In this document: positions 270-10,469 of the stretch, piece after piece
Position numbering within the stretch: position 1 is the first letter of the stretch
Layout of the letters: the number at the start of each line of letters is the position of its first letter
From: a virus
Lineage: Duplodnaviria; Heunggongvirae; Uroviricota; Caudoviricetes
Reading direction: 5' to 3' (one strand)
Length of the DNA: 12,744 nucleotides
IMG/VR virus record: IMGVR_UViG_2660238548_000016
Translations under genes and position numbers: made by a program
Notes under the pieces: generated by a model
The model's input: only the letters and a program-made list of their open reading frames with translations
Told to the model about the DNA's origin: nothing
Database searches by the model: none

Positions 270-311
270 GTTCACAGATAAAATACTCTCCAGGAAACCC
301 GGGGCGGTTCA
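1..311 (+). mobile_element. Right end of an IS3-family insertion sequence (partial); terminal inverted repeat about 272-311 ending ...GGTTCA
   Basis: Transposase 3' end is followed by about 40 bp that ends in CA, as IS3-family termini do (5'-TG...CA-3'). The downstream exonuclease ORF on the other strand is cut exactly here. Exact terminus not verified. Confidence 0.6.
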
Positions 312-656
312 CCCCTGCCGTTCGTATGAACGGCGCAAAATCGTGTTGTCGAAGTTGGCTCCATTTCCCCAGACCTGAACAAAAAATTCACCGGAGTTTT
401 CGTCGATAAATTCCCGCAATTGTAACAGTGCATCATCTAACGGGATTTCATCGGTCATAATGGCAGATTGCGCTTCGCGTGATTGCTTAAGCCACCGTTT
501 AATGGTGTCCCGATCAATGACTCCGCCAGCAGTTTCCAGATCGATAGTCTTACTAAATTCCGGTCCCATATCTCCGGTTTGCGGATCGAAAAATATTGCA
601 CCTATTGAGATAATCGGGGCATCAGGATTTTTTCCCATGGTTTTAAGGTCGATCAT
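309..656 (-). CDS. DnaQ-like (DEDD) 3'-5' exonuclease-family protein, C-terminally truncated by the IS insertion; start uncertain (ATG 656, or upstream ATG 806 overlapping the recE-like gene)
   Basis: Translation MIDLKTMGKNPDAPIISIGAIFFDPQTGDMGPEFSKTIDLE...IKRWLKQSREAQSAIM...FVQVWGNGANFDNTILRRSYERQG resembles small phage-encoded DnaQ-like exonucleases. The ORF ends ...ERQG and its stop codon (TGA on the minus strand, bases 311-309) is formed by the terminal TCA of the IS. Confidence 0.5.
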   Translation of the reverse strand: MIDLKTMGKNPDAPIISIGAIFFDPQTGDMGPEFSKTIDLETAGGVIDRDTIKRWLKQSREAQSAIMTDEIPLDDALLQLREFIDENSGEFFVQVWGNGANFDNTILRRSYERQG

Positions 657-712
657 TAGATGGTCACACGTCCTGCTGGTGGATGTGATAACGTGATGAC
701 CGTTCACCGTAA

Positions 713-2530
713 TTAAGGGATTTGCTGTCTCGCCTGTTTCATTATTGCCATTGGCATGTTGATCGCCTTCGGTGCATTGCTTATTCGGGAGCACGGCATT
801 TTCCATTTCCTCCGGATTTTTTTCCGGGCTTCATCCTGGCTTTCTTCGTTGAATGTCTCTTGGTAGGTTGCGTCACCCATTACCGCTCCACAATCAGGGC
901 AGTTGCCGCCATCGGTCTGACCACATGTGGTGCAAACTTTTTCTGGTTCTTGTTGCACTACTGGTTCAGGTTGTTTTGTTTTTGGCTCGTTTTGTAACGC
1001 ATTTGGGCTGTTTTGTTCCGCTTTATCCTGATTCTGGTCATCATCATCGCGACTCTGGATCCCCTTCACCCATTTTGGATCATTCGGGTCGCTAATCCCT
1101 TCAACAAATTCTCCTCGAGAAGCAGCCAGTAATTTATCTGCATCGACAGGATTTTTGGGTGGAATGTTTTTCTTGGCTTCATGGAGTTCTGCACGCAGTT
1201 TCTGATATTTCGCATCAACAGAATTTATCTGTGGCTGAGCATCCATCGACTGCGTGTCCTGATTATGTTCAGTTGTATCCGGTTCCACTGCTTCAGTCGT
1301 TGCCTGTTCATCTGCCATTGCGCCAGATGGCTGCGGTTTTTCTTCATCATCCTGTTTTCCTTCTTTTGTTACACGCTGCGGCATCGGGGCAGAGGAGCGA
1401 CCACAGGCAATATCCACGATTTCCGGATCAGGGGTGGCATGATCGGTTTCAGTCAGCACCTTATTCAGGTATTCGGTGACACGGTGGGGAGTAGCCTCTA
1501 TACCAATTGGTGCTTCTTTCACGGACGCAACCACGATGGCGCGGGAGTAATCCTTGTGGCCCGGCATGGTGATGAATTTGCTGAAAAACACAGAAAATGG
1601 CGGTTTATTTTCAGCGATAATTTCCTCAATGCGTTTAGCGTGCGCGGGATGAAGGTTATAAATATCCACGTCCATTGAACGGGCCAGTACGCCAGTGGCT
1701 ACGTCACGCGCCACTGACGCATCATCGTGGACAAAACCTTCGCCGCGATCGGTAAGAATGCCGCCGCCAGCGTTAGCGCCGGATGGCGTGCGGCTGATGC
1801 GTGAAACACGATTTCCTTTCATCCACTCTTTTGTAAGCAGACCGCGATCGGTGTAGTCAGCGCCCAGGTATGCTTCGATAAAAGAGGTCATCAGTCCCAG
1901 GTCCGAATTTACGGGGGCGGGGAAAACTTTGTCAGTGTCTCGCACCAGTTTGTACAAATCCCGAAGCTCCAGCGGTTCGAGTTGCACTGCTTTATTTGAG
2001 ATGGCCAGCGCGGTAACGGCGGGAAGTTTTTCATCCTGTGCGTTATGTAATGCGCGCAGTTTGTCCAGTGAAACGTGCGTGAGCGGTTTTTCGCTGTTGT
2101 GTTGCGCCAGCCAGCGAACAGGCAGAATCTGACCTGAAACCGGAAGAAGCATATTCTCCTCAATCTTAGCCATGTCTTCGCCGTTGACGTTGGTATTGTC
2201 AGTACTGGCTGGTTTGTCCGGAACAGAGGGCGCGATAAGTATCATTGTGATACCATCTTCTCCGCCTTTTTCGTATCGGTTGCAGAATTCAGTATCAAAC
2301 ACACCTTCCGGTGGAAGGTCATTCACAACGGGTAAATGGACGCGGATGGGTTTTTTAAAATCCTCTTCGTCAAATCCGGCATCGTCCATTGCAGCAACAC
2401 CACGTGATATTGCAACCGATAATTTTTTTGCTGTGCGCCAGTAAAAACCACCTTTAATCCCAAGGCGTTTTCTGACTTTGTCATTTTTGGCTTCGTAATA
2501 TAGTGCAATTTCTTCTTTATCAGCGTTCAT
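713..2530 (-). CDS. RecE (exodeoxyribonuclease VIII)-like protein, N-terminal region only (605 aa); C-terminal nuclease domain absent
   Basis: 605-aa ORF with GAGG 8 nt upstream of the ATG. Long stretches match my recollection of Rac RecE residues about 100-600 ([101 protein letters not shown]). The ORF stops about 25 aa after the zinc-ribbon motif, where RecE would continue into its nuclease domain. Confidence 0.75.
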
Positions 2531-3165: not shown

Positions 3166-3223
3166 AAAAAGGGCGGCAGAGCAGTCACGGAGTAAAACTG
3201 ATACCGCCAAATGTCACCAGAAA
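3166..3223 (-). ncRNA. dicF: DicF small regulatory RNA (ftsZ-targeting sRNA of the dicB operon)
   Basis: The minus strand reads TTTCTGGTGACATTTGGCGGTATCAGTTTTACTCCGTGACTGCTCTGCCGCCCTTTTT, which I recognise as DicF, ending in its intrinsic terminator (GC stem plus T run). A 9-bp stem (GGGTTGTCA/TGACAACCC, 3249-3287) sits just upstream on the same transcript, plausibly the processing hairpin. Ends approximate. Confidence 0.8.
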
Positions 3224-5577: not shown

Positions 5578-6112
5578 ACAGGTTTGTGAGGCTCTGGATG
5601 CCTGGGTATGCCGACCAGGAATGACACAGGAGCAGGCGACGATATTAATCACGGAAGCATTCTGGGCTCTGAAAGAACGCCCGAACATCGATGTTCAACG
5701 CGTCACGTTTGATGATGGCGCGGTTGATCAACGGGCGCTGGGCGTTAACCGGGTGAAGATATTCGAACGCTGGAAATCTATCGACACCAGGGATAAGCGG
5801 GAAAAATTCACGGCGCTGATTCCGGCAATTATGGCGGCTATCCGGATCAGTGATTTCAGGTTGTATCGTGAAATTACTGACGGAAAAAGCATTACGTACA
5901 TGATCGCCGGGTTAAACAAAGAATATGGCGATGTGGTGGAGTCAGGGCTACTTTTTGCGGATCCAGCTGTTGTGGAACGTGAGACTGACGAACTTATAGA
6001 AAAAGCTATTGCTTTCAAGCGTGCGTATCGTCAGCAATACCAACATTACTTTGCAGATAAACAAATATCTGTCTGGGGTTCGTATGAGTATCGATGCGCT
6101 ACGATGGGCTAA
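5561..6112 (+). CDS. YdaT-family protein (183 aa; CII-position regulator or toxin-like protein of Rac/Qin-type prophages)
   Basis: ORF overlaps the dicC stop by 17 nt; position and N-terminal pattern (MKITPEQV...) fit YdaT-like proteins that follow the cro analog. Confidence 0.7.
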   Translation: MKITPEQVCEALDAWVCRPGMTQEQATILITEAFWALKERPNIDVQRVTFDDGAVDQRALGVNRVKIFERWKSIDTRDKREKFTALIPAIMAAIRISDFRLYREITDGKSITYMIAGLNKEYGDVVESGLLFADPAVVERETDELIEKAIAFKRAYRQQYQHYFADKQISVWGSYEYRCATMG

Positions 6113-7124
6113 AAAGGTGAAAACCGGCAGTTCATCCAGTAAGTCAGTATTGACCTGGCTTGCTGATATGTGCGGTGCCGATTTGTGTGCATACCCGTCT
6201 GTATCTGCACTGGCAGAAGTAACGGAACTGAACAAAAAGACTGTGCAGGACAGCTTACGACACCTGATGGAGATTGGGTTAATTGTTGATACCGGTGAGA
6301 GAAAAGGCCGGACAAAACAAATTGTGGTGTACCGACTTATCGGTGTTGAAGAAAGTGTTACCGAGGATGAATACACCCAAAAACGGGAGTCTTTAAAGGT
6401 AGGTAAAATTGGTACTGTTAATAAAAACAGAACCGAAAACGGTTATGTTTCAGCACAAAACAGCCCCAAAAACGGAACTCTTTGCTGCATGGAAAATAAC
6501 CAAAGACACCCAAATTTTCCATCAAAGACACCCAAAAACGGATCACGGAACCCAAAGGAACCCAAAGATTTAAACCCCACACATAACGCACGCGAGAGTG
6601 CTCCGACCAGTGAGCAGGAAGTTTTGTCGTTACAGGCAGTCCCCCCTGTATTCCTGGATGGCCTGAGCGAACCCATCGGAAAATTTCCGATGACCGATAA
6701 CTGGTATCCGTCACGGGATTTTCGACGACGGGCTGCGTTGTGGGGGATGGCTTTGCCGGAGACAGAATTCACACCTGCTGAACTTGCCGCATTCCGGGAC
6801 TACTGGGCAGCGGAGGGGAAAGTGTTTACGCAGGTTCAGTGGGAGCAGAAATTCGCCCGTCACGTAAATCACGTCAGGGCGCAGGTTAAACCAGTCAGCA
6901 AGGGGGTAAACCATGCAGCAGCACCAGGTGGAACCGCATCACGGGCAGTTCAGGAAATTCGGGCAGCACGTGAGCAGTGGGAACGTGAAAACGGATTTAT
7001 CAGCGACGGAAACGGCCTGGAAGCTGTGGGAGCTCATGGGGGAGGTTTATTCGAACCGCTGGACCCAGAAGAACGGGGCCGCACCTTCGAAGCTCTGGAT
7101 TGCACAGATTGGCGCGATGACTGA
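6084..7124 (+). CDS. Replication initiator (lambda O analog): N-terminal winged-helix HTH, C-terminal DnaT-like domain
   Basis: ATG at 6084 (MSIDALRWAKKV...) overlaps the upstream stop. HTH segment ...SVSALAEVTELNKKTVQDSLRHLMEIGLI...; C-terminal DNWYPSRDFRRRAALWGMALPETEFTPAELAAFRDYWAAEGKVF resembles DnaT-like phage replication proteins. Iteron-like repeats lie inside the gene. Confidence 0.75.
   Translation: MSIDALRWAKKVKTGSSSSKSVLTWLADMCGADLCAYPSVSALAEVTELNKKTVQDSLRHLMEIGLIVDTGERKGRTKQIVVYRLIGVEESVTEDEYTQKRESLKVGKIGTVNKNRTENGYVSAQNSPKNGTLCCMENNQRHPNFPSKTPKNGSRNPKEPKDLNPTHNARESAPTSEQEVLSLQAVPPVFLDGLSEPIGKFPMTDNWYPSRDFRRRAALWGMALPETEFTPAELAAFRDYWAAEGKVFTQVQWEQKFARHVNHVRAQVKPVSKGVNHAAAPGGTASRAVQEIRAAREQWERENGFISDGNGLEAVGAHGGGLFEPLDPEERGRTFEALDCTDWRDD
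6370..6570. repeat. Iteron-like direct repeats (putative replication origin) inside the O-like gene
   Basis: CCCAAAAACGG occurs three times (6376-6386, 6465-6475, 6531-6541), with related copies GAACCGAAAACGG (6429-6441), AGACACCCAAA (6505-6515) and GGAACCCAAAGGAACCCAAAG (6547-6567). Confidence 0.45.
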
Positions 7125-7578
7125 GCAGCAAATCCGGCAGGTCTGCCGCCAGTGCATGGACTGCTGCCGGGCGGGTGAAACATGGCCTCCGGACCTGGCT
7201 GAGTTTGTGGCGCTGATTTCGGAAAGCGGGGCCAATCCATTTGGTCTGACGGTGGATGCTGTGATGGAGGAGTACCGCCGCTGGCGCAATGAGTCCTGGC
7301 GATACGACGGAAGTGATAAGTACCCGTGGTCTCAGCCTGTGCTGTATCACATTTGCCTCGAGATGCGTTCAAAGGGGATTGAACGCCAGATGACCGAAGG
7401 GGAGTTAAAACGGCTTGCAGAACGGCAGCTGACGAAATGGGCAAAGCATGTTAGCAACGGCCTGAGTGTTCCGCCTGTCCGGCGACAACTGGCAGCACCC
7501 AAACGTCCTGCGGGACCAACGCCAATTGAGTTGCTGAAACAGGAATATGAACGCCGGAAAGCGGCTGGGTTTGTCTGA
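6913..7578 (+). CDS. Replication protein P-like (helicase loader), 221 aa
   Basis: AGGGGG 6 nt upstream of the ATG at 6913. WKLWELMGEVYSNRW...SKLWIAQIGAMTEQQIRQVCRQ...YPWSQPVLYHICLEMRSKGIERQMTEGELKRLAERQL parallels lambda P (W..A....ITT.EQ.....; YPW.....YWLV......; ...ELRRKAADEL). Overlaps the 3' end of the O-like gene by 212 nt in another frame. Confidence 0.7.
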   Translation: MQQHQVEPHHGQFRKFGQHVSSGNVKTDLSATETAWKLWELMGEVYSNRWTQKNGAAPSKLWIAQIGAMTEQQIRQVCRQCMDCCRAGETWPPDLAEFVALISESGANPFGLTVDAVMEEYRRWRNESWRYDGSDKYPWSQPVLYHICLEMRSKGIERQMTEGELKRLAERQLTKWAKHVSNGLSVPPVRRQLAAPKRPAGPTPIELLKQEYERRKAAGFV

Positions 7579-7610: not shown

Positions 7611-8357
7611 ATGGAGACTGTTTTTGACGCACTGAAAGCGATGGGAAAAGCCACGTCGGTAGAGCTGGCTGCGCGACTTGATATCAGTCGTGAAGAAGTG
7701 CTGAACGAGCTGTGGGAACTGAGAAAGGCTGGCTTCGTTGATAAAAGCGTATACACCTGGCGTGTGGCTTATAACAACGTTCAGCAGGAACAGCCAGCGC
7801 CGGCAGAACTGTCGGAAGAAACCACCACGGCAACAGTCGCTAAAATTTCGGAGTGCGATTTAACTGCGACGGTTGAACAACGCGGACCACAAACGGCTGA
7901 TGAGCTGGCTACGTTGTTCGGTACAACATCACGCAAAGTGGCTTCAACGCTGGCAATGGCAATCAGCAAAGGTCGTCTGATTCGTGTAAACCAGAACGGT
8001 AAATTTCGTTACTGCATGCCGGGCGATAAGTTACCAGCAGAGCCGAAATCCGTGCCGGTAACGGAAAATGATGGTAAAGCCTTTCCTCAGTCAGCAGGTG
8101 TTGCGTTACCAGTACAGGAAGCTGCAACACAGGAAGATATTAAAACAGAAACTGTGGCTGATATTGTGCAATCGTTGCCATCGTTTACTGAAACGCGAGC
8201 GGATGACCTGGTTTTACCATCGCTGCATATGGCAAACCGCGAATTGCGTCGGGCGAAAAGTCATGTCCAGAAGTGGGAGCGAGTCTGCGCCGCGCTGCGG
8301 GAGCTGAACAAGCACCGAGATATGGTTGCCGGGATTTGTCGGAAGTCCGGGCAATGA
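7611..8357 (+). CDS. Phage protein with two tandem winged-helix (MarR-like) N-terminal repeats (DUF1627-like), 248 aa
   Basis: GGGAGG 6-8 nt upstream. Internal duplication: residues about 1-55 and about 85-140 share the pattern (ELA..L.(I/T)SR..V...L.....G.(V/I)), each resembling a winged helix. Confidence 0.65.
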
Positions 8358-8518
8358 GCGGATGGTGCAGGCCTGAAATTATGATACTAACAATGAAGGT
8401 AAAATGCATCGGCAGTCTGATTGGTCGTAGTGAGGCGGCGGTCAGGATGAAAGCCCGGGTTAAGGGAATAAGCCTGATTCTGCGGGGTAATTTTCACCAG
8501 TCAACAAAATATCCGTAG
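8354..8518 (+). CDS. Hypothetical small protein (54 aa), possibly translationally coupled (ATGA overlap)
   Basis: ATG overlaps the stop of the upstream gene; no recognisable family; coding status uncertain. Confidence 0.3.
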
Positions 8519-8555
8519 CGCGATAACGGTCAAAAATCATGGCGCTGACACTTTT

Positions 8556-8798
8556 GTGCCACTGGAGATGACTGTACCTAAGTTCAGGGGAGAAGAACAC
8601 GTCCGGTGGGATGGTCGGGCCAGATTTAAAGGGCAGGTCATGGCTCCAGCCAGTACGCTGGCAATGGAGGCTGCCTGGCTGGAAATTGATATGGGAACCA
8701 CGCCACTCAGGGATTTACTGCCGGTCCAGAGAATAAATTCCTGTTACGGTTACACCACTGTGATCTTGCAAGTGCAGGAAAGTAGGTCTACACGGTAA
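8556..8798 (+). CDS. Hypothetical protein (GTG-initiated 80 aa, or 76 aa from the ATG at 8568)
   Basis: ORF in the operon orientation with no recognisable family and a weak ribosome-binding site. Confidence 0.3.
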   Translation: MPLEMTVPKFRGEEHVRWDGRARFKGQVMAPASTLAMEAAWLEIDMGTTPLRDLLPVQRINSCYGYTTVILQVQESRSTR

Positions 8799-9026
8799 CG
8801 CGAGTGCGTGTAACTTTTGATGTTATTTCCGTAGAAACACCGGACAAATTTTCGCTGGCAGGTCATGCTGAAGGTATAAATCTGCAGATTATGGACAATT
8901 ACGGATATCCGGCAAGAGCCGGAAAAAGCATGCCGCCTCTAATTCTCAGTGGAAGATGGACTTGATTATACTCATTGCATTGTCAGAAATAGTTATCCAT
9001 TAAAGGCTGGCTATTCCAAACAGGAT

Positions 9027-9050
9027 GTTGATTACAAAAATGTAATCAAC
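9027..9050. promoter_or_regulatory. Perfect 24-bp palindrome GTTGATTACA-AAAA-TGTAATCAAC (candidate operator) upstream of the binding-protein moron, with TATAAT at 9079-9084
   Basis: 10-bp perfect inverted-repeat arms separated by 4 bp, about 30 bp upstream of a consensus -10 hexamer and about 170 bp upstream of the ATG at 9217, in a strongly AT-rich intergenic region. Confidence 0.35.
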
Positions 9051-9216
9051 ATGTAAGGTTTATACTCTTCAATATGCGTATAATTTTCCTTATTTTGTTA
9101 ACTTTAAATAACAAGCTATGCACGAGGTAAAGTCGGATAAGTTTATCTGGATGTAATATATATTATTTGTAGTGTTTATAACTTTATTTCATGATAACCA
9201 ATAAAAGGAGTTTTTT

Positions 9217-9975
9217 ATGAGGAACATAATGGCAGGTTTTTTAATATTCCTGTCTTCTGCTGCTTATGCTGATATCAATCTGTATGGTCCTGGTGGCCCG
9301 CATACAGCCTTGCTTGATGCAGCCAAACTTTATGCCGAAAAAACAGGTATTATAGTGAACGTTCATTACGGCCCACAGAACAAATGGAATGAAGATGCCA
9401 AAAAAAATGCAGATATCTTGTTTGGCGCATCAGAACAATCTGCTCTGGCTATCATTCGGGACCATAAAGACAGCTTCAGTGAAAAAGATATTCAGCCTCT
9501 TTATCTGCGAAAAAGTATTTTACTGGTAAAGAAAGGTAATCCTAAAAATATCCGGAGTATTGACGACCTGACCAGACCCGGGATTGGCGTAATTGTTAAT
9601 GATGGTGGTGGTACCAGTAATACATCAGGCACTGGCGTCTGGGAAGATATTGCCGGACGTAAAGGGAATATAGAAACTGTCGCCGCAATCCGAAAAAATA
9701 TTATTTTATATGCGCCCAATAGCGGAACTGCACGTAAGGCTCTTGAGAATCAGCCTGAAGCAGATGTCTGGATAACCTGGGCTGACTGGGCAGCCAGTAA
9801 TCCAGAAATTGGTGATGTCGTGGAAATAGCGCCAGACTACGTGATATGGCGTGATATGAACATTACAGTACGTCAGGATGCAAATGATGAAACCCGTCGA
9901 TTTGCAGAATGGCTACAAACCGATGAAGCGGCGCCTGCATTCAAAAAATATGGCTGGACCAGGAAAGGCACTTGA
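9217..9975 (+). CDS. Secreted periplasmic substrate-binding protein, ModA-like (molybdate/tungstate-binding fold); orphan with no transporter partners in the window
   Basis: AAGGAG 7 nt upstream; signal peptide MRNIMAGFLIFLSSAAYA. ModA-like landmarks: ADILFGASEQS, LLVKKGNPKNIRSIDDLTRPGIGVIVND, C-terminal AFKKYGW. AT-rich codon usage unlike the neighbours. Confidence 0.8.
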   Translation: MRNIMAGFLIFLSSAAYADINLYGPGGPHTALLDAAKLYAEKTGIIVNVHYGPQNKWNEDAKKNADILFGASEQSALAIIRDHKDSFSEKDIQPLYLRKSILLVKKGNPKNIRSIDDLTRPGIGVIVNDGGGTSNTSGTGVWEDIAGRKGNIETVAAIRKNIILYAPNSGTARKALENQPEADVWITWADWAASNPEIGDVVEIAPDYVIWRDMNITVRQDANDETRRFAEWLQTDEAAPAFKKYGWTRKGT

Positions 9976-9981
9976 CATCCT

Positions 9982-10010
9982 CCACGTCCTTCAGGACGTG
10001 GATTCTTTTT
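9982..10010 (+). terminator. Rho-independent terminator after the binding-protein gene
   Basis: CCACGTCC-TTCA-GGACGTGG stem-loop followed by ATTCTTTTT. Confidence 0.7.
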
Positions 10011-10132
10011 CCGGATGCCGCGCCAGCGGCATGTAGGGGCAGCTCACAAAACGGAAAAAATTGTACGCTAAGCCTCGCCAGGTGAACTGAATTCATTCCG
10101 ATATGGGAATTCCCATATCGGACGAAAACGGC

Positions 10133-10160: not shown

Positions 10161-10167
10161 TGCTGCG

Positions 10168-10230
10168 GGTGCTTGAGGCTATCTGCCTCGGGCATGAACA
10201 CCAACGGCAGATAGATAAAAGCCCCACCCG
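10168..10230 (-). ncRNA. sok: Sok-like antisense RNA (antitoxin of the hok/mok system); boundaries approximate
   Basis: By analogy with R1 hok/sok, the antisense RNA should be complementary to the hok mRNA 5' leader. The minus strand here contains CUAUCUGCC...GGCAGAUAG followed by CCUCAAGCACC, the same architecture as the R1 Sok 3' region. Promoter not confidently located. Confidence 0.4.
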
Positions 10231-10256
10231 ACTATAAATCGAAGTGAGGCCCCTAT

Positions 10257-10469
10257 ATGCTCGTCACATATAGATTGCCTCTTACGGACCGAAAGGTCAA
10301 GGAGAAGCAGGCTATGAAGCAGCAAAAGGCGATGTTAATCGCCCTGATCGTCATCTGTTTAACCGTCATAGTGACGGCACTGGTAACGAGGAAAGACCTC
10401 TGCGAGGTACGAATCCGAACCGGCCAGACGGAGGTCGCTGTCTTCACAGCTTACGAACCTGAGGAGTAA
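10257..10469 (+). CDS. Mok-like overlapping reading frame (in-frame N-terminal extension of hok, 70 aa)
   Basis: In-frame upstream start sharing the hok stop codon, as mokC shares its stop with hokC in E. coli. Confidence 0.45.
   Translation: MLVTYRLPLTDRKVKEKQAMKQQKAMLIALIVICLTVIVTALVTRKDLCEVRIRTGQTEVAVFTAYEPEE
10314..10469 (+). CDS. hok: Hok/Gef-family type I toxin (51 aa membrane peptide)
   Basis: MKQQKAMLIALIVICLTVIVTALVTRKDLCEVRIRTGQTEVAVFTAYEPEE is near-identical in pattern to Gef/HokC; AAGGAGAAG lies upstream of the ATG. Confidence 0.85.
   Translation: MKQQKAMLIALIVICLTVIVTALVTRKDLCEVRIRTGQTEVAVFTAYEPEE

Follow-up and report, generated by a model that had tools for sequence, protein, structure and literature searches.

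The window, by which we mean the whole stretch of 12,744 nucleotides that was analysed, carries on its plus strand a gene for a secreted binding protein, with replication genes to its left and hok/sok to its right. The features in and around this gene are the following.

8550-9011, plus strand: decayed fimbrial-subunit pseudogene, which travels with paa in prophages
9016-9216, plus strand: AT-rich paa leader or promoter region, 26.4% GC, where homology to the plasmid paa-like modules starts
9025-9052, no strand assigned: inverted repeat ATGTTGATTACA-AAAA-TGTAATCAACAT, with 12-nt arms at 9025-9036 and 9041-9052 and a non-palindromic AAAA spacer
9079-9084, plus strand: candidate paa -10 hexamer TATAAT, perfect and invariant in five diverged copies
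9206-9210, plus strand: ribosome-binding site AGGAG, 6 nt before the ATG and kept in the plasmid copies
9217-9975, plus strand: paa/adfO coding sequence, 252 aa
9981-10010, plus strand: paa intrinsic terminator, a 9-bp G+C-rich stem (9981-10002) with a 4-nt loop, followed by TTCTTTTT
10011-10040, plus strand: right end of the DNA common to the plasmid paa-like modules, from alignments

The original prediction of a 252-residue secreted binding protein between the replication genes and hok was borne out by the open reading frame at 9217-9975, its signal peptide and its match to SBP_bac_11. The replication genes are a DnaT-like gene (6009-7124), a lambda-P-like gene (6913-7578) and a DUF1627 gene (7611-8357). 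The open reading frame is paa, synonym adfO, a long-known adherence-associated prophage gene. NCBI names its product "AcfC family adhesin Paa" and the protein cluster to which it belongs, 99% identical, carries the same name. Copies at least 99% identical are present in 576 of the 5,426 complete E. coli genomes, and 11 deposited phage records with 99% DNA identity are annotated 'porcine attaching-effacing associated protein Paa/adherence factor AdfO', Stx2a/PPompW phage records being among them. It is the same gene as paa of porcine EPEC O45 and as z2053 / ECs1772 of O157:H7, with DNA that is 99-100% identical, and the copy in O-island 57 of O157:H7 (CP-933O/Sp9) has the same prophage position and like neighbours, namely the fimbrial pseudogene upstream and the hok-family gene 'ckf' downstream, so that there are no differences of substance from the known E. 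coli paa/adfO. In strain 2011C-4251 the copy is 100% identical over 8700-10100 and the prophage is integrated beside rspAB. The protein had been thought an unusual cargo for a moron, which it is not, because paa/adfO of O-island 57 serves in the literature (PMC8565820, PMC2749873) as a standard marker of virulence in E. coli of the attaching-effacing, Shiga-toxigenic and porcine enterotoxigenic types. Descriptions of paa/adfO date from 1999-2003 onwards, the gene is routinely used as a virulence marker in PCR and on microarrays, and structures of its relatives have been solved. Thus, since the gene had been described in EHEC and EPEC prophages, the earlier observation was correct but the gene is not new, and as a discovery the locus matters little.

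The gene is cargo of foreign origin, low in GC, which brings a terminator of its own and occupies a variable prophage slot. The GC content of the paa coding sequence is 43.9% and that of the leader at 9016-9216 is 26.4%, compared to 51-52% in the flanking phage backbone, and at third codon positions it is 35.2% in paa against 48-65% in the backbone; the deviant base composition that had been proposed is therefore real. Prophages without paa have DUF4752/DUF4014 genes, DUF977/DUF551 genes or methyltransferase genes in this slot, which runs from the DUF1627 gene to hokD. No paa-less prophage in which the two flanks are directly joined was found because the slot is always filled by other cargo. 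A diverged paa-like module is also present on IncF plasmids in four copies with 86-89% DNA identity, and on one of these plasmids it lies about 2 kb from an ST enterotoxin gene. The plasmid alignments begin at about 9013-9031 whatever stands to the left. A precisely bounded mobile cassette was considered and rejected, the left ends agreeing within about 3 nt in four contexts and the right ends being staggered. No terminal repeats were seen at the ends of the paa module and we do not claim a transposable unit.

The classical lambdoid morons, such as bor and lom of lambda, are extra genes that are dispensable for phage growth and have an atypical base composition; they have their own terminator, are expressed in the lysogen and benefit the host during infection. 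The paa cassette resembles them in each of these respects. It differs from them in that its promoter is a candidate only, in that it is a composite which includes a dead fimbrial fragment, and in that a diverged paa-like module also occurs on IncF plasmids. The moron layout suggested earlier thus holds for the foreign cargo, the terminator and the variable slot, whereas the promoter of its own comes down to a TATAAT without a -35 element.

The DNA upstream of paa had been described as about 400 bp of AT-rich sequence, and this is so for the leader at 9016-9216 but not for 8550-9011, which is a fimbrial pseudogene and not promoter DNA. The GC content of 8550-9011 is 48% and that of 8800-9015 is 42%. 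In tblastn with an intact fimbrial gene, that of E. coli muskdeer13-4 (L003 7754-8341), the pseudogene was recovered in three pieces with 73-80% identity and a joint E of 3e-58. It matches residues 24-182 of the intact 195-aa homologue, with both ends gone, and is interrupted by two frameshifts and an in-frame stop, in agreement with the NCBI annotation 'fimbrial protein, frameshifted; internal stop'. Its DNA is 87% identical to genes of chaperone-usher operons elsewhere. The original prediction overlooked this pseudogene, which fills half of what was called the upstream region. The paa gene came in together with this dead piece of fimbrial DNA. Among known structured RNAs in Rfam, none was found in the paa leader, the matches in the window being sok and DicF only.

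The TATAAT near the palindrome is, as had been noted, perfect, and it is conserved, but no -35 element is recognisable for it (1/6 matches) and the consensus promoter scan, which found no strong sigma-70 promoter for paa, did not return it. The palindrome itself is a non-random inverted repeat, although it is not the perfect 24-bp palindrome at 9027-9050 that was first described but a pair of 12-nt arms separated by AAAA. Only 0.015 such repeats are expected per shuffled window, and the repeat folds with -14.3 kcal/mol and a z-score of -6.1. Its possible roles include those of an operator and of an RNA hairpin. The core ATTACAAAAATGTAATCAA alone is invariant across five variants of the repeat. 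The search for it elsewhere in host genomes, which the original prediction had proposed as a way to its regulator, gave no copy beyond the paa loci: in the 5,426 E. coli genomes it occurs once per genome in those that carry paa, as well as in the plasmid paa-like copies, and nowhere else. The idea of an operator of a wider regulon was rejected on these grounds, since a repeat that is confined to the neighbourhood of paa gives no hint of a regulon. When 185,579 species were scanned for the exact pattern, with one genome each, there were six unrelated matches, none of them in Enterobacterales; they fall in Bacteroidota, Burkholderiales and similar groups and are consistent with chance.

That a dedicated transcription factor controls paa through the repeat as its operator, as the original prediction proposed, is a tentative reading, a possibility rather than an expectation. 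It draws on the statistics of the repeat, on its position 27 nt upstream of a conserved -10 without a -35, an arrangement for which an activator is usually required, and on the core and right arm, which are unchanged in five diverged copies. Against it, besides the lack of any second copy, the outer left arm is neither kept nor compensated in the 86-87% class of plasmid copies, and the repeat was not found upstream of the orthologues in E. albertii, Edwardsiella and Enterobacter. The repeat also lies at most 10 nt from the point where four different left contexts join, so that a relic of the junction or a hairpin in the RNA would explain it just as well. The dead fimbrial fragment, the palindrome private to paa and the -10 without a -35 are nonetheless concrete handles on paa regulation.

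At the other end of the gene the intrinsic terminator that had been predicted is indeed present, at 9981-10010, with a folding energy of -16 kcal/mol and a z-score of -5.5. Its stem and T-run are retained in three of the four plasmid copies, and in pCFS3246-1 the 5' arm is deleted. The stretch 10011-10040 contains a weak hairpin, ATGCCGC-GCCA-GCGGCAT, which is non-significant (fold z-score -1.0), and homology to the prophage backbone resumes at about 10084.

Paa begins with a predicted Sec-type signal peptide, MRNIMAGFLIFLSSAAYA (residues 1-18, followed by D), which has an n-h-c region ending in AYA before the D. In the AlphaFold model residues 1-15 have a pLDDT below 50, and the mature chain of PEB3 (2hxw) aligns from residue 19. 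The sequence of Paa thus predicts export to the periplasm. Mature Paa would be a cysteine-free protein of 234 aa and about 25.8 kDa, and no lipobox, cysteine, beta-barrel or anchor was found in its sequence or model. The profile and structure searches found a periplasmic binding-protein fold. Pfam SBP_bac_11 (PF13531) matches residues 20-247 with an E of 1.6e-34 over profile positions 1-226 of 227, and phmmer against the PDB gave 4.1e-82 for PEB3 (Paa residues 11-248) and 1.5e-81 for AcfC (residues 16-248). The model, with a pLDDT of 90.4 and a pTM of 0.85, superposes on AcfC 4jb7 with a TM of 0.97 and an rmsd of 1.3 A and on PEB3 with a TM of 0.94-0.95 (0.95 on 3fj7), and in the structural alignment Paa is 52-53% identical to PEB3 and AcfC. 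Paa belongs to the AcfC/PEB3/Paa family and is a soluble periplasmic binding protein of type II, with two lobes. The invariant motifs of the family, LYGPGGPH, SNTSGTGVWED, PNSG and DxWxTWxDW, are intact in it. When 14 homologues from nine genera (Escherichia, Salmonella, Edwardsiella, Enterobacter, Aeromonas, Vibrio, Francisella, Helicobacter and Campylobacter) were aligned, 70 columns were invariant, SNTSGTGVWED included. Inside this motif T136/S137 of Paa align with T138/S139 of PEB3, which are reported to be ligand-site residues (Min et al. 2009).

PEB3 of C. jejuni (PDB 2hxw, 3fir, 3fj7) is like Paa in its fold (53% identity), its conserved SNTSGT ligand loop, its signal peptide and its stand-alone gene. 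It differs in having K135 where Paa has T133. The DFNVS stretch of PEB3, which we take to be its N-glycosylation sequon, reads DSFSEK in Paa, so that the sequon is absent there. AcfC of V. cholerae (52% identity) is like Paa also in that its gene lies on a horizontally acquired virulence element and has a role in colonisation. The gene acfC, however, is in the Vibrio pathogenicity island and is described in an operon downstream of the chemoreceptor-like acfB (PMC5976639), whereas paa is in a prophage and has no chemoreceptor neighbour. In the solved relatives the cleft is occupied by a small anion, which the titles of the PDB entries name as L-phospholactate for PEB3 and as D-aspartate for AcfC. 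The protein had been called ModA-like, and this is right insofar as ModA, with 17% identity, is the nearest fold outside the family of Paa, but Paa is not a member of the ModA or TupA families. ModA and Sbp/CysP, the oxyanion binders of ABC importers, share with Paa the type II (cluster D) fold with a TM of 0.70-0.78, and the structure matches of Paa to ModA and to the sulfate-binding protein have only 12-20% identity. For ModA, TIGR01256 gave 18.6 bits against a cut-off of 62.5, and Paa was far under the cut-offs of NF002920, NF002918 and NF007958. For Sbp/CysP, NF008022 gave 22.7 against 288, TIGR00971 21.6 against 155.5 and NF008106 19 against 308, with the matches confined to a stretch of 40-50 residues. 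By the curated cut-offs membership in ModA, TupA and Sbp was thus rejected and the likeness is at the level of the fold alone.

As had been stated, paa has no permease or ATPase partner: neither in the window nor in the whole prophage of the reference genome was a permease or ATPase gene found, and modB/modC and cysTWA partners were likewise absent from both. The gene also stands by itself in E. albertii, Edwardsiella, Campylobacter, V. cholerae and Francisella, and a permease or ATPase neighbour was absent in six of the seven contexts examined. In Enterobacter an AfuABC-like transporter, which has its own binding protein, is encoded 690 nt upstream of the one orthologue concerned. The state without a transporter is therefore typical of the whole AcfC/PEB3/Paa family, and as it is family-wide it argues for a function that does not depend on a transporter.

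Taken together, it is very probable that the locus is a lysogenic-conversion cassette for paa/adfO, carried by a lambdoid prophage whose immunity region is of the Qin/dic type, and that its product is an anion-binding Paa which promotes adherence and colonisation. Transcription would begin inside the AT-rich leader, with the conserved TATAAT as a possible site, and because no -35 is present we infer that it would depend on host factors. Between the two lobes of the mature protein, the cleft would take up a small anion. If PEB3 and AcfC are a guide, this ligand may be a sulfate-, phosphate- or carboxylate-bearing compound, for example 3-phosphoglycerate, phosphoenolpyruvate or a sulfated mucin component. 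Paa would work without a dedicated ABC transporter, and its activity would, going by the literature, improve the adherence and gut colonisation of the lysogen. In published work, O157:H7 with a mutated adfO shows poor adherence to HeLa cells (PMC8565820) and paa contributes to attaching-effacing lesions (PMC2749873). A Sec-exported small-anion binding protein that promotes adherence and colonisation is the most likely description of Paa.

How Paa would promote adherence can be explained in different ways. Paa could be a surface-exposed adhesin that binds sulfated host glycans or mucin directly and tethers the cell at the first step of attaching-effacing adhesion. Adhesin is the usual label for Paa and PEB3 in the literature and, for Paa, also in the NCBI annotation, the HeLa phenotype of the adfO mutant fits it, and AcfC binds heparan sulfate, chondroitin sulfate and mucin in ELISA (PMC5976639). 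We nevertheless regard a surface adhesin as rather unlikely, as mature Paa is without any of the surface attachments looked for, and AcfC, a binder of sulfated glycans with an influence on distribution in the gut and on chemotaxis towards mucin, is periplasmic and does not mediate cell adhesion (PMC5976639). Moreover, the pocket is invariant across genera with very different hosts, including a Francisella that is an endosymbiont of ciliates, and this is easier to reconcile with a small ligand common to them all than with a receptor on the host. From the analogy with AcfC and the missing membrane anchor, an indirect route is somewhat more likely than a true surface adhesin, and it would consist either of ligand sensing and chemotaxis as in AcfC or of scavenging via a transporter encoded elsewhere. 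In its sensing form, Paa would be an orphan periplasmic sensor for a chemoreceptor or kinase of the host, comparable to what has been proposed for AcfC with AcfB, by which the prophage re-tunes the chemotaxis or signalling of the lysogen to anions derived from mucus; if this were true, the palindrome at 9025-9052 would be the control site that restricts paa expression to the gut. This proposal, which is built on analogy, has in our judgement a minor chance of being right. In its scavenging form, with PEB3 as the model, Paa would feed a phosphorylated or sulfated metabolite to a chromosomal ABC transporter and the gain in colonisation would be metabolic. Phosphoenolpyruvate and 3-phosphoglycerate are listed as ligands of PEB3 (PMC8835900), there is a structure of PEB3 with L-phospholactate bound, and the transporter near the Enterobacter orthologue speaks in the same direction. 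The scavenger is nonetheless unlikely, as the other six contexts have no adjacent permease or ATPase, the Enterobacter transporter has its own binding protein and there is no known docking partner in E. coli.

It could also be argued that the cassette is inert hitch-hiking DNA, a decaying fimbrial and paa remnant without current function in the lysogen, since the neighbouring fimbrial gene is clearly dead and the promoter is weak by consensus. This is highly improbable and has been largely refuted by conservation and by published phenotypes. The paa reading frame is intact and hardly varies among the 576 genomes, it keeps all the family-invariant residues, and phenotypes of mutants are reported (PMC8565820). 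Furthermore, RNA-seq detected expression of the paa gene of EDL933, which was induced in bovine rumen and rectum contents (PMC8524897).

The ORF at 9217-9975 is the well-known virulence gene paa/adfO. In phage records, megablast gave 11 full-length matches at 99% identity, in Stx2a-converting and "PPompW" phages, where the gene is annotated Paa/AdfO and is followed by "gef". The region 8700-10100 was present at 99% identity or higher in 576 of 5,426 complete E. coli genomes, annotated as "paa: AcfC family adhesin Paa" adjoining a "fimbrial protein" (pseudogene), and one genome, that of strain 2011C-4251, was 100% identical over it, in a prophage beside rspAB. It has been reported that O-island 57 (CP-933O) of O157:H7 holds adfO (z2053, ECs1772) and the hok-like ckf (z2054), that HeLa adherence is lowered in an adfO mutant, and that paa adds to attaching-effacing lesions (PMC8565820, PMC2749873, PMC1890555, PMC10562709). 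Surveys of porcine ETEC and EPEC use paa as a routine virulence marker (PMC12883757). The gene and its neighbours are as follows.

6009-7124, DnaT-like replication gene
6913-7578, lambda-P-like replication gene
7611-8357, DUF1627 gene, counted with the replication genes
8550-9011, fimbrial-subunit pseudogene, aligning with residues 24-182 of an intact homologue (195 aa)
~9013-9016 to ~10040, paa module, roughly 1 kb
9025-9036 and 9041-9052, palindrome arms of 12 nt each, AAAA between
9079-9084, candidate -10, TATAAT
6 nt upstream of the paa ORF, ribosome-binding site AGGAG
9217-9975, plus strand, paa/adfO CDS, 252 aa
9981-10002, 9-bp stem of the paa intrinsic terminator, then TTCTTTTT (-16 kcal/mol, z -5.5)
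10167-10316, sok (Rfam, 103.9 bits)
10257-10469, mok ORF
10314-10469, hok

The stretch 10167-10469 makes up a full type I toxin-antitoxin module (hok/mok/sok), and it is the 'ckf' gene that is always reported with adfO in O-island 57.

The original prediction was largely correct in what it observed. It had described a 252-aa ORF with a signal peptide between the replication genes and hok, and this was borne out: the N-terminus, MRNIMAGFLIFLSSAAYA followed by DINLYGPGG, is a typical Sec signal peptide, residue 19 is where the mature PEB3 crystal chain begins aligning, and residues 1-15 are the sole part of the AlphaFold model (pLDDT 90.4) with pLDDT below 50. Pfam SBP_bac_11 spans mature Paa (E 1.6e-34), and a sequence search of the PDB gave C. 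jejuni PEB3 (4e-82) and V. cholerae AcfC (1.5e-81), both over the full length. The model superposes on AcfC (4jb7) with a TM of 0.97 (rmsd 1.3 A) and on PEB3 with a TM of 0.94-0.95. The predicted likeness to ModA holds for the fold, as ModA proteins are the next neighbours (12-20% identity, TM 0.65-0.78), but not for the family, in which membership was rejected (TIGR01256, 18.6 bits against a cut-off of 62.5). Sulfate-, iron- and sugar-phosphate-binding proteins rank beyond ModA, and membership in Sbp or CysP was likewise rejected with model scores far under the cut-offs. Across 14 aligned homologues, drawn from nine genera, 70 columns are invariant, including the motifs LYGPGGPH, ADILFG.S.QSA, SNTSGTGVWED, PNSG and D.W.TW.DW. 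T136/S137 of Paa align with T138/S139 of PEB3, which are reported to be the ligand-site residues (Min et al. 2009). Paa is a soluble type II binding protein, predicted to be exported, whose cleft is intact and invariant in the family.

The gene was shown to be foreign cargo that brings a terminator of its own. The phage backbone stops after a 54-aa ORF (8354-8518) and restarts at ~10084, within a small ORF present ahead of hok in many prophages. In related prophages the same slot holds other small genes (DUF4752/DUF4014, DUF977/DUF551, a methyltransferase) and is therefore a variable cargo slot, so that the moron reading is sound. The deviant base composition that had been proposed is also there, the GC content being 43.9% in the CDS (GC3 35%) and 26.4% in the leader (9016-9216) compared to 51-52% in flanking phage DNA. 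However, the stretch 8550-9011, which takes in the 8800-9015 of the prediction, is not regulatory but a dead fimbrial-subunit gene with two frameshifts, one stop and both ends absent. Its intact homologue, on a chromosome piece of E. coli muskdeer13-4 (L003 1-8341), stands second among the subunit genes of a chaperone-usher operon that adjoins pgtABC, which regulates phosphoglycerate transport; beside the reported binding of 3-phosphoglycerate by PEB3 this is curious and may be a coincidence. IncF plasmids carry the paa module at 86-89% identity, and one copy has the enterotoxin gene sta1 at ~2 kb distance. Across four different left contexts the module begins at the same place to within a few nt, but the right ends are staggered, and we therefore make no claim that it is a discrete mobile element.

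The palindrome predicted at 9027-9050 is not a perfect 24-mer, as its centre is not self-complementary. The repeat with the arms listed above is far from random, since a dinucleotide-shuffled window is expected to hold 0.015 of this kind. In the 5,426 complete E. coli genomes the palindrome is confined to those that carry paa, each with one copy, and to ~30 paa-like copies on plasmids. Its 20-base core, searched in one genome per species (185,579), gave six unrelated matches, none in Enterobacterales, and the palindrome is missing ahead of the orthologues in E. albertii, Edwardsiella and Enterobacter. Thus the element is real and private to paa, and the proposed search of host genomes cannot identify a regulator, as copies occur only with paa. 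It may be an operator, an RNA hairpin (-14.3 kcal/mol) or a relic of the junction. Plasmid copies of the 86-87% class have an outer left arm that is altered without compensation, and the only invariant parts are ATTACAAAAATGTAATCAA and the GTAAGGT directly after. The right arm and following bases (9042-9057) read GTAAT-N6-GTAAG, which five diverged paa modules keep unchanged; as a lead only, this is similar to the direct repeat of CpxR type (GTAAA-N5-GTAAA), from which its spacing differs by one. The predicted TATAAT matches the hexamer perfectly and is kept in diverged copies, but it has neither a -35 (1/6 matches) nor an extended -10, and a consensus promoter scan reported nothing at 9079-9084.

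As predicted, no permease or ATPase gene was found in the window, nor across the whole prophage of one reference genome. The gene also stands alone in E. albertii (within the aga/PTS region), Edwardsiella, Campylobacter (adjoining cdtABC), V. cholerae (in a pathogenicity island) and Francisella, which makes the absence of a partner a trait of the family and nothing peculiar to the phage copy. Transport or sensing genes were seen close by in one context only, that of Enterobacter bugandensis (L010/L011 313-5750), where an AfuABC-like transporter with its own binding protein, a fused permease and an ATPase lies 690 nt upstream of the orthologue. The same orthologue adjoins a hybrid sensor kinase with SBP_bac_3 domains.

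The contribution of Paa to adherence and colonisation is taken from the literature. EDL933 paa is induced in contents of the bovine rumen and rectum (PMC8524897). The periplasmic AcfC binds sulfated glycans and influences chemotaxis towards mucin, not cell adhesion (PMC5976639), and the ligands listed for PEB3 are phosphoenolpyruvate and 3-phosphoglycerate (PMC8835900). According to the PDB entry titles, solved relatives have L-phospholactate or D-aspartate bound. Paa would then bind a small anion and might act indirectly via sensing, chemotaxis or scavenging. As it lacks an anchor, and as hosts that differ widely share the same conserved pocket, such indirect action is more likely than that of a true surface adhesin, and this is the least secure step.

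The other features of the window are as follows.

63-269, C-terminus of an IS3-family transposase (rve_3/rve_2)
269-311, terminal-repeat-like sequence of the IS3-family element
309-2530, minus strand, prophage exonuclease, split into two overlapping frames
713-2530, minus strand, exonuclease frame with Exonuc_VIII domain
309-806, minus strand, exonuclease frame with Rv2179c-like 3'-5' exonuclease domain
3171-3222, minus strand, DicF small RNA (Rfam RF00039, 77 bits)
10097-10122, perfect 13+13 palindrome TCCGATATGGGAA/TTCCCATATCGGA (-19.2 kcal/mol, z -5.4)

The 3' end of the insertion sequence (1-311), which resembles IS629, abuts the exonuclease gene. This gene has probably become a pseudogene by frameshift, as PPompW phage records annotate it; the exonuclease at that place in 2011C-4251 is annotated intact, so that the window may derive from a different strain. 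DicF together with dicB, dicA/dicC-like repressors and ydaT marks a Qin/dic-type immunity region. The palindrome at 10097-10122, just upstream of sok/hok, belongs to the prophage backbone and not to the paa insert, and it has several copies per EHEC genome, lying in other prophages in a 34-aa ORF or a KilA-N gene.
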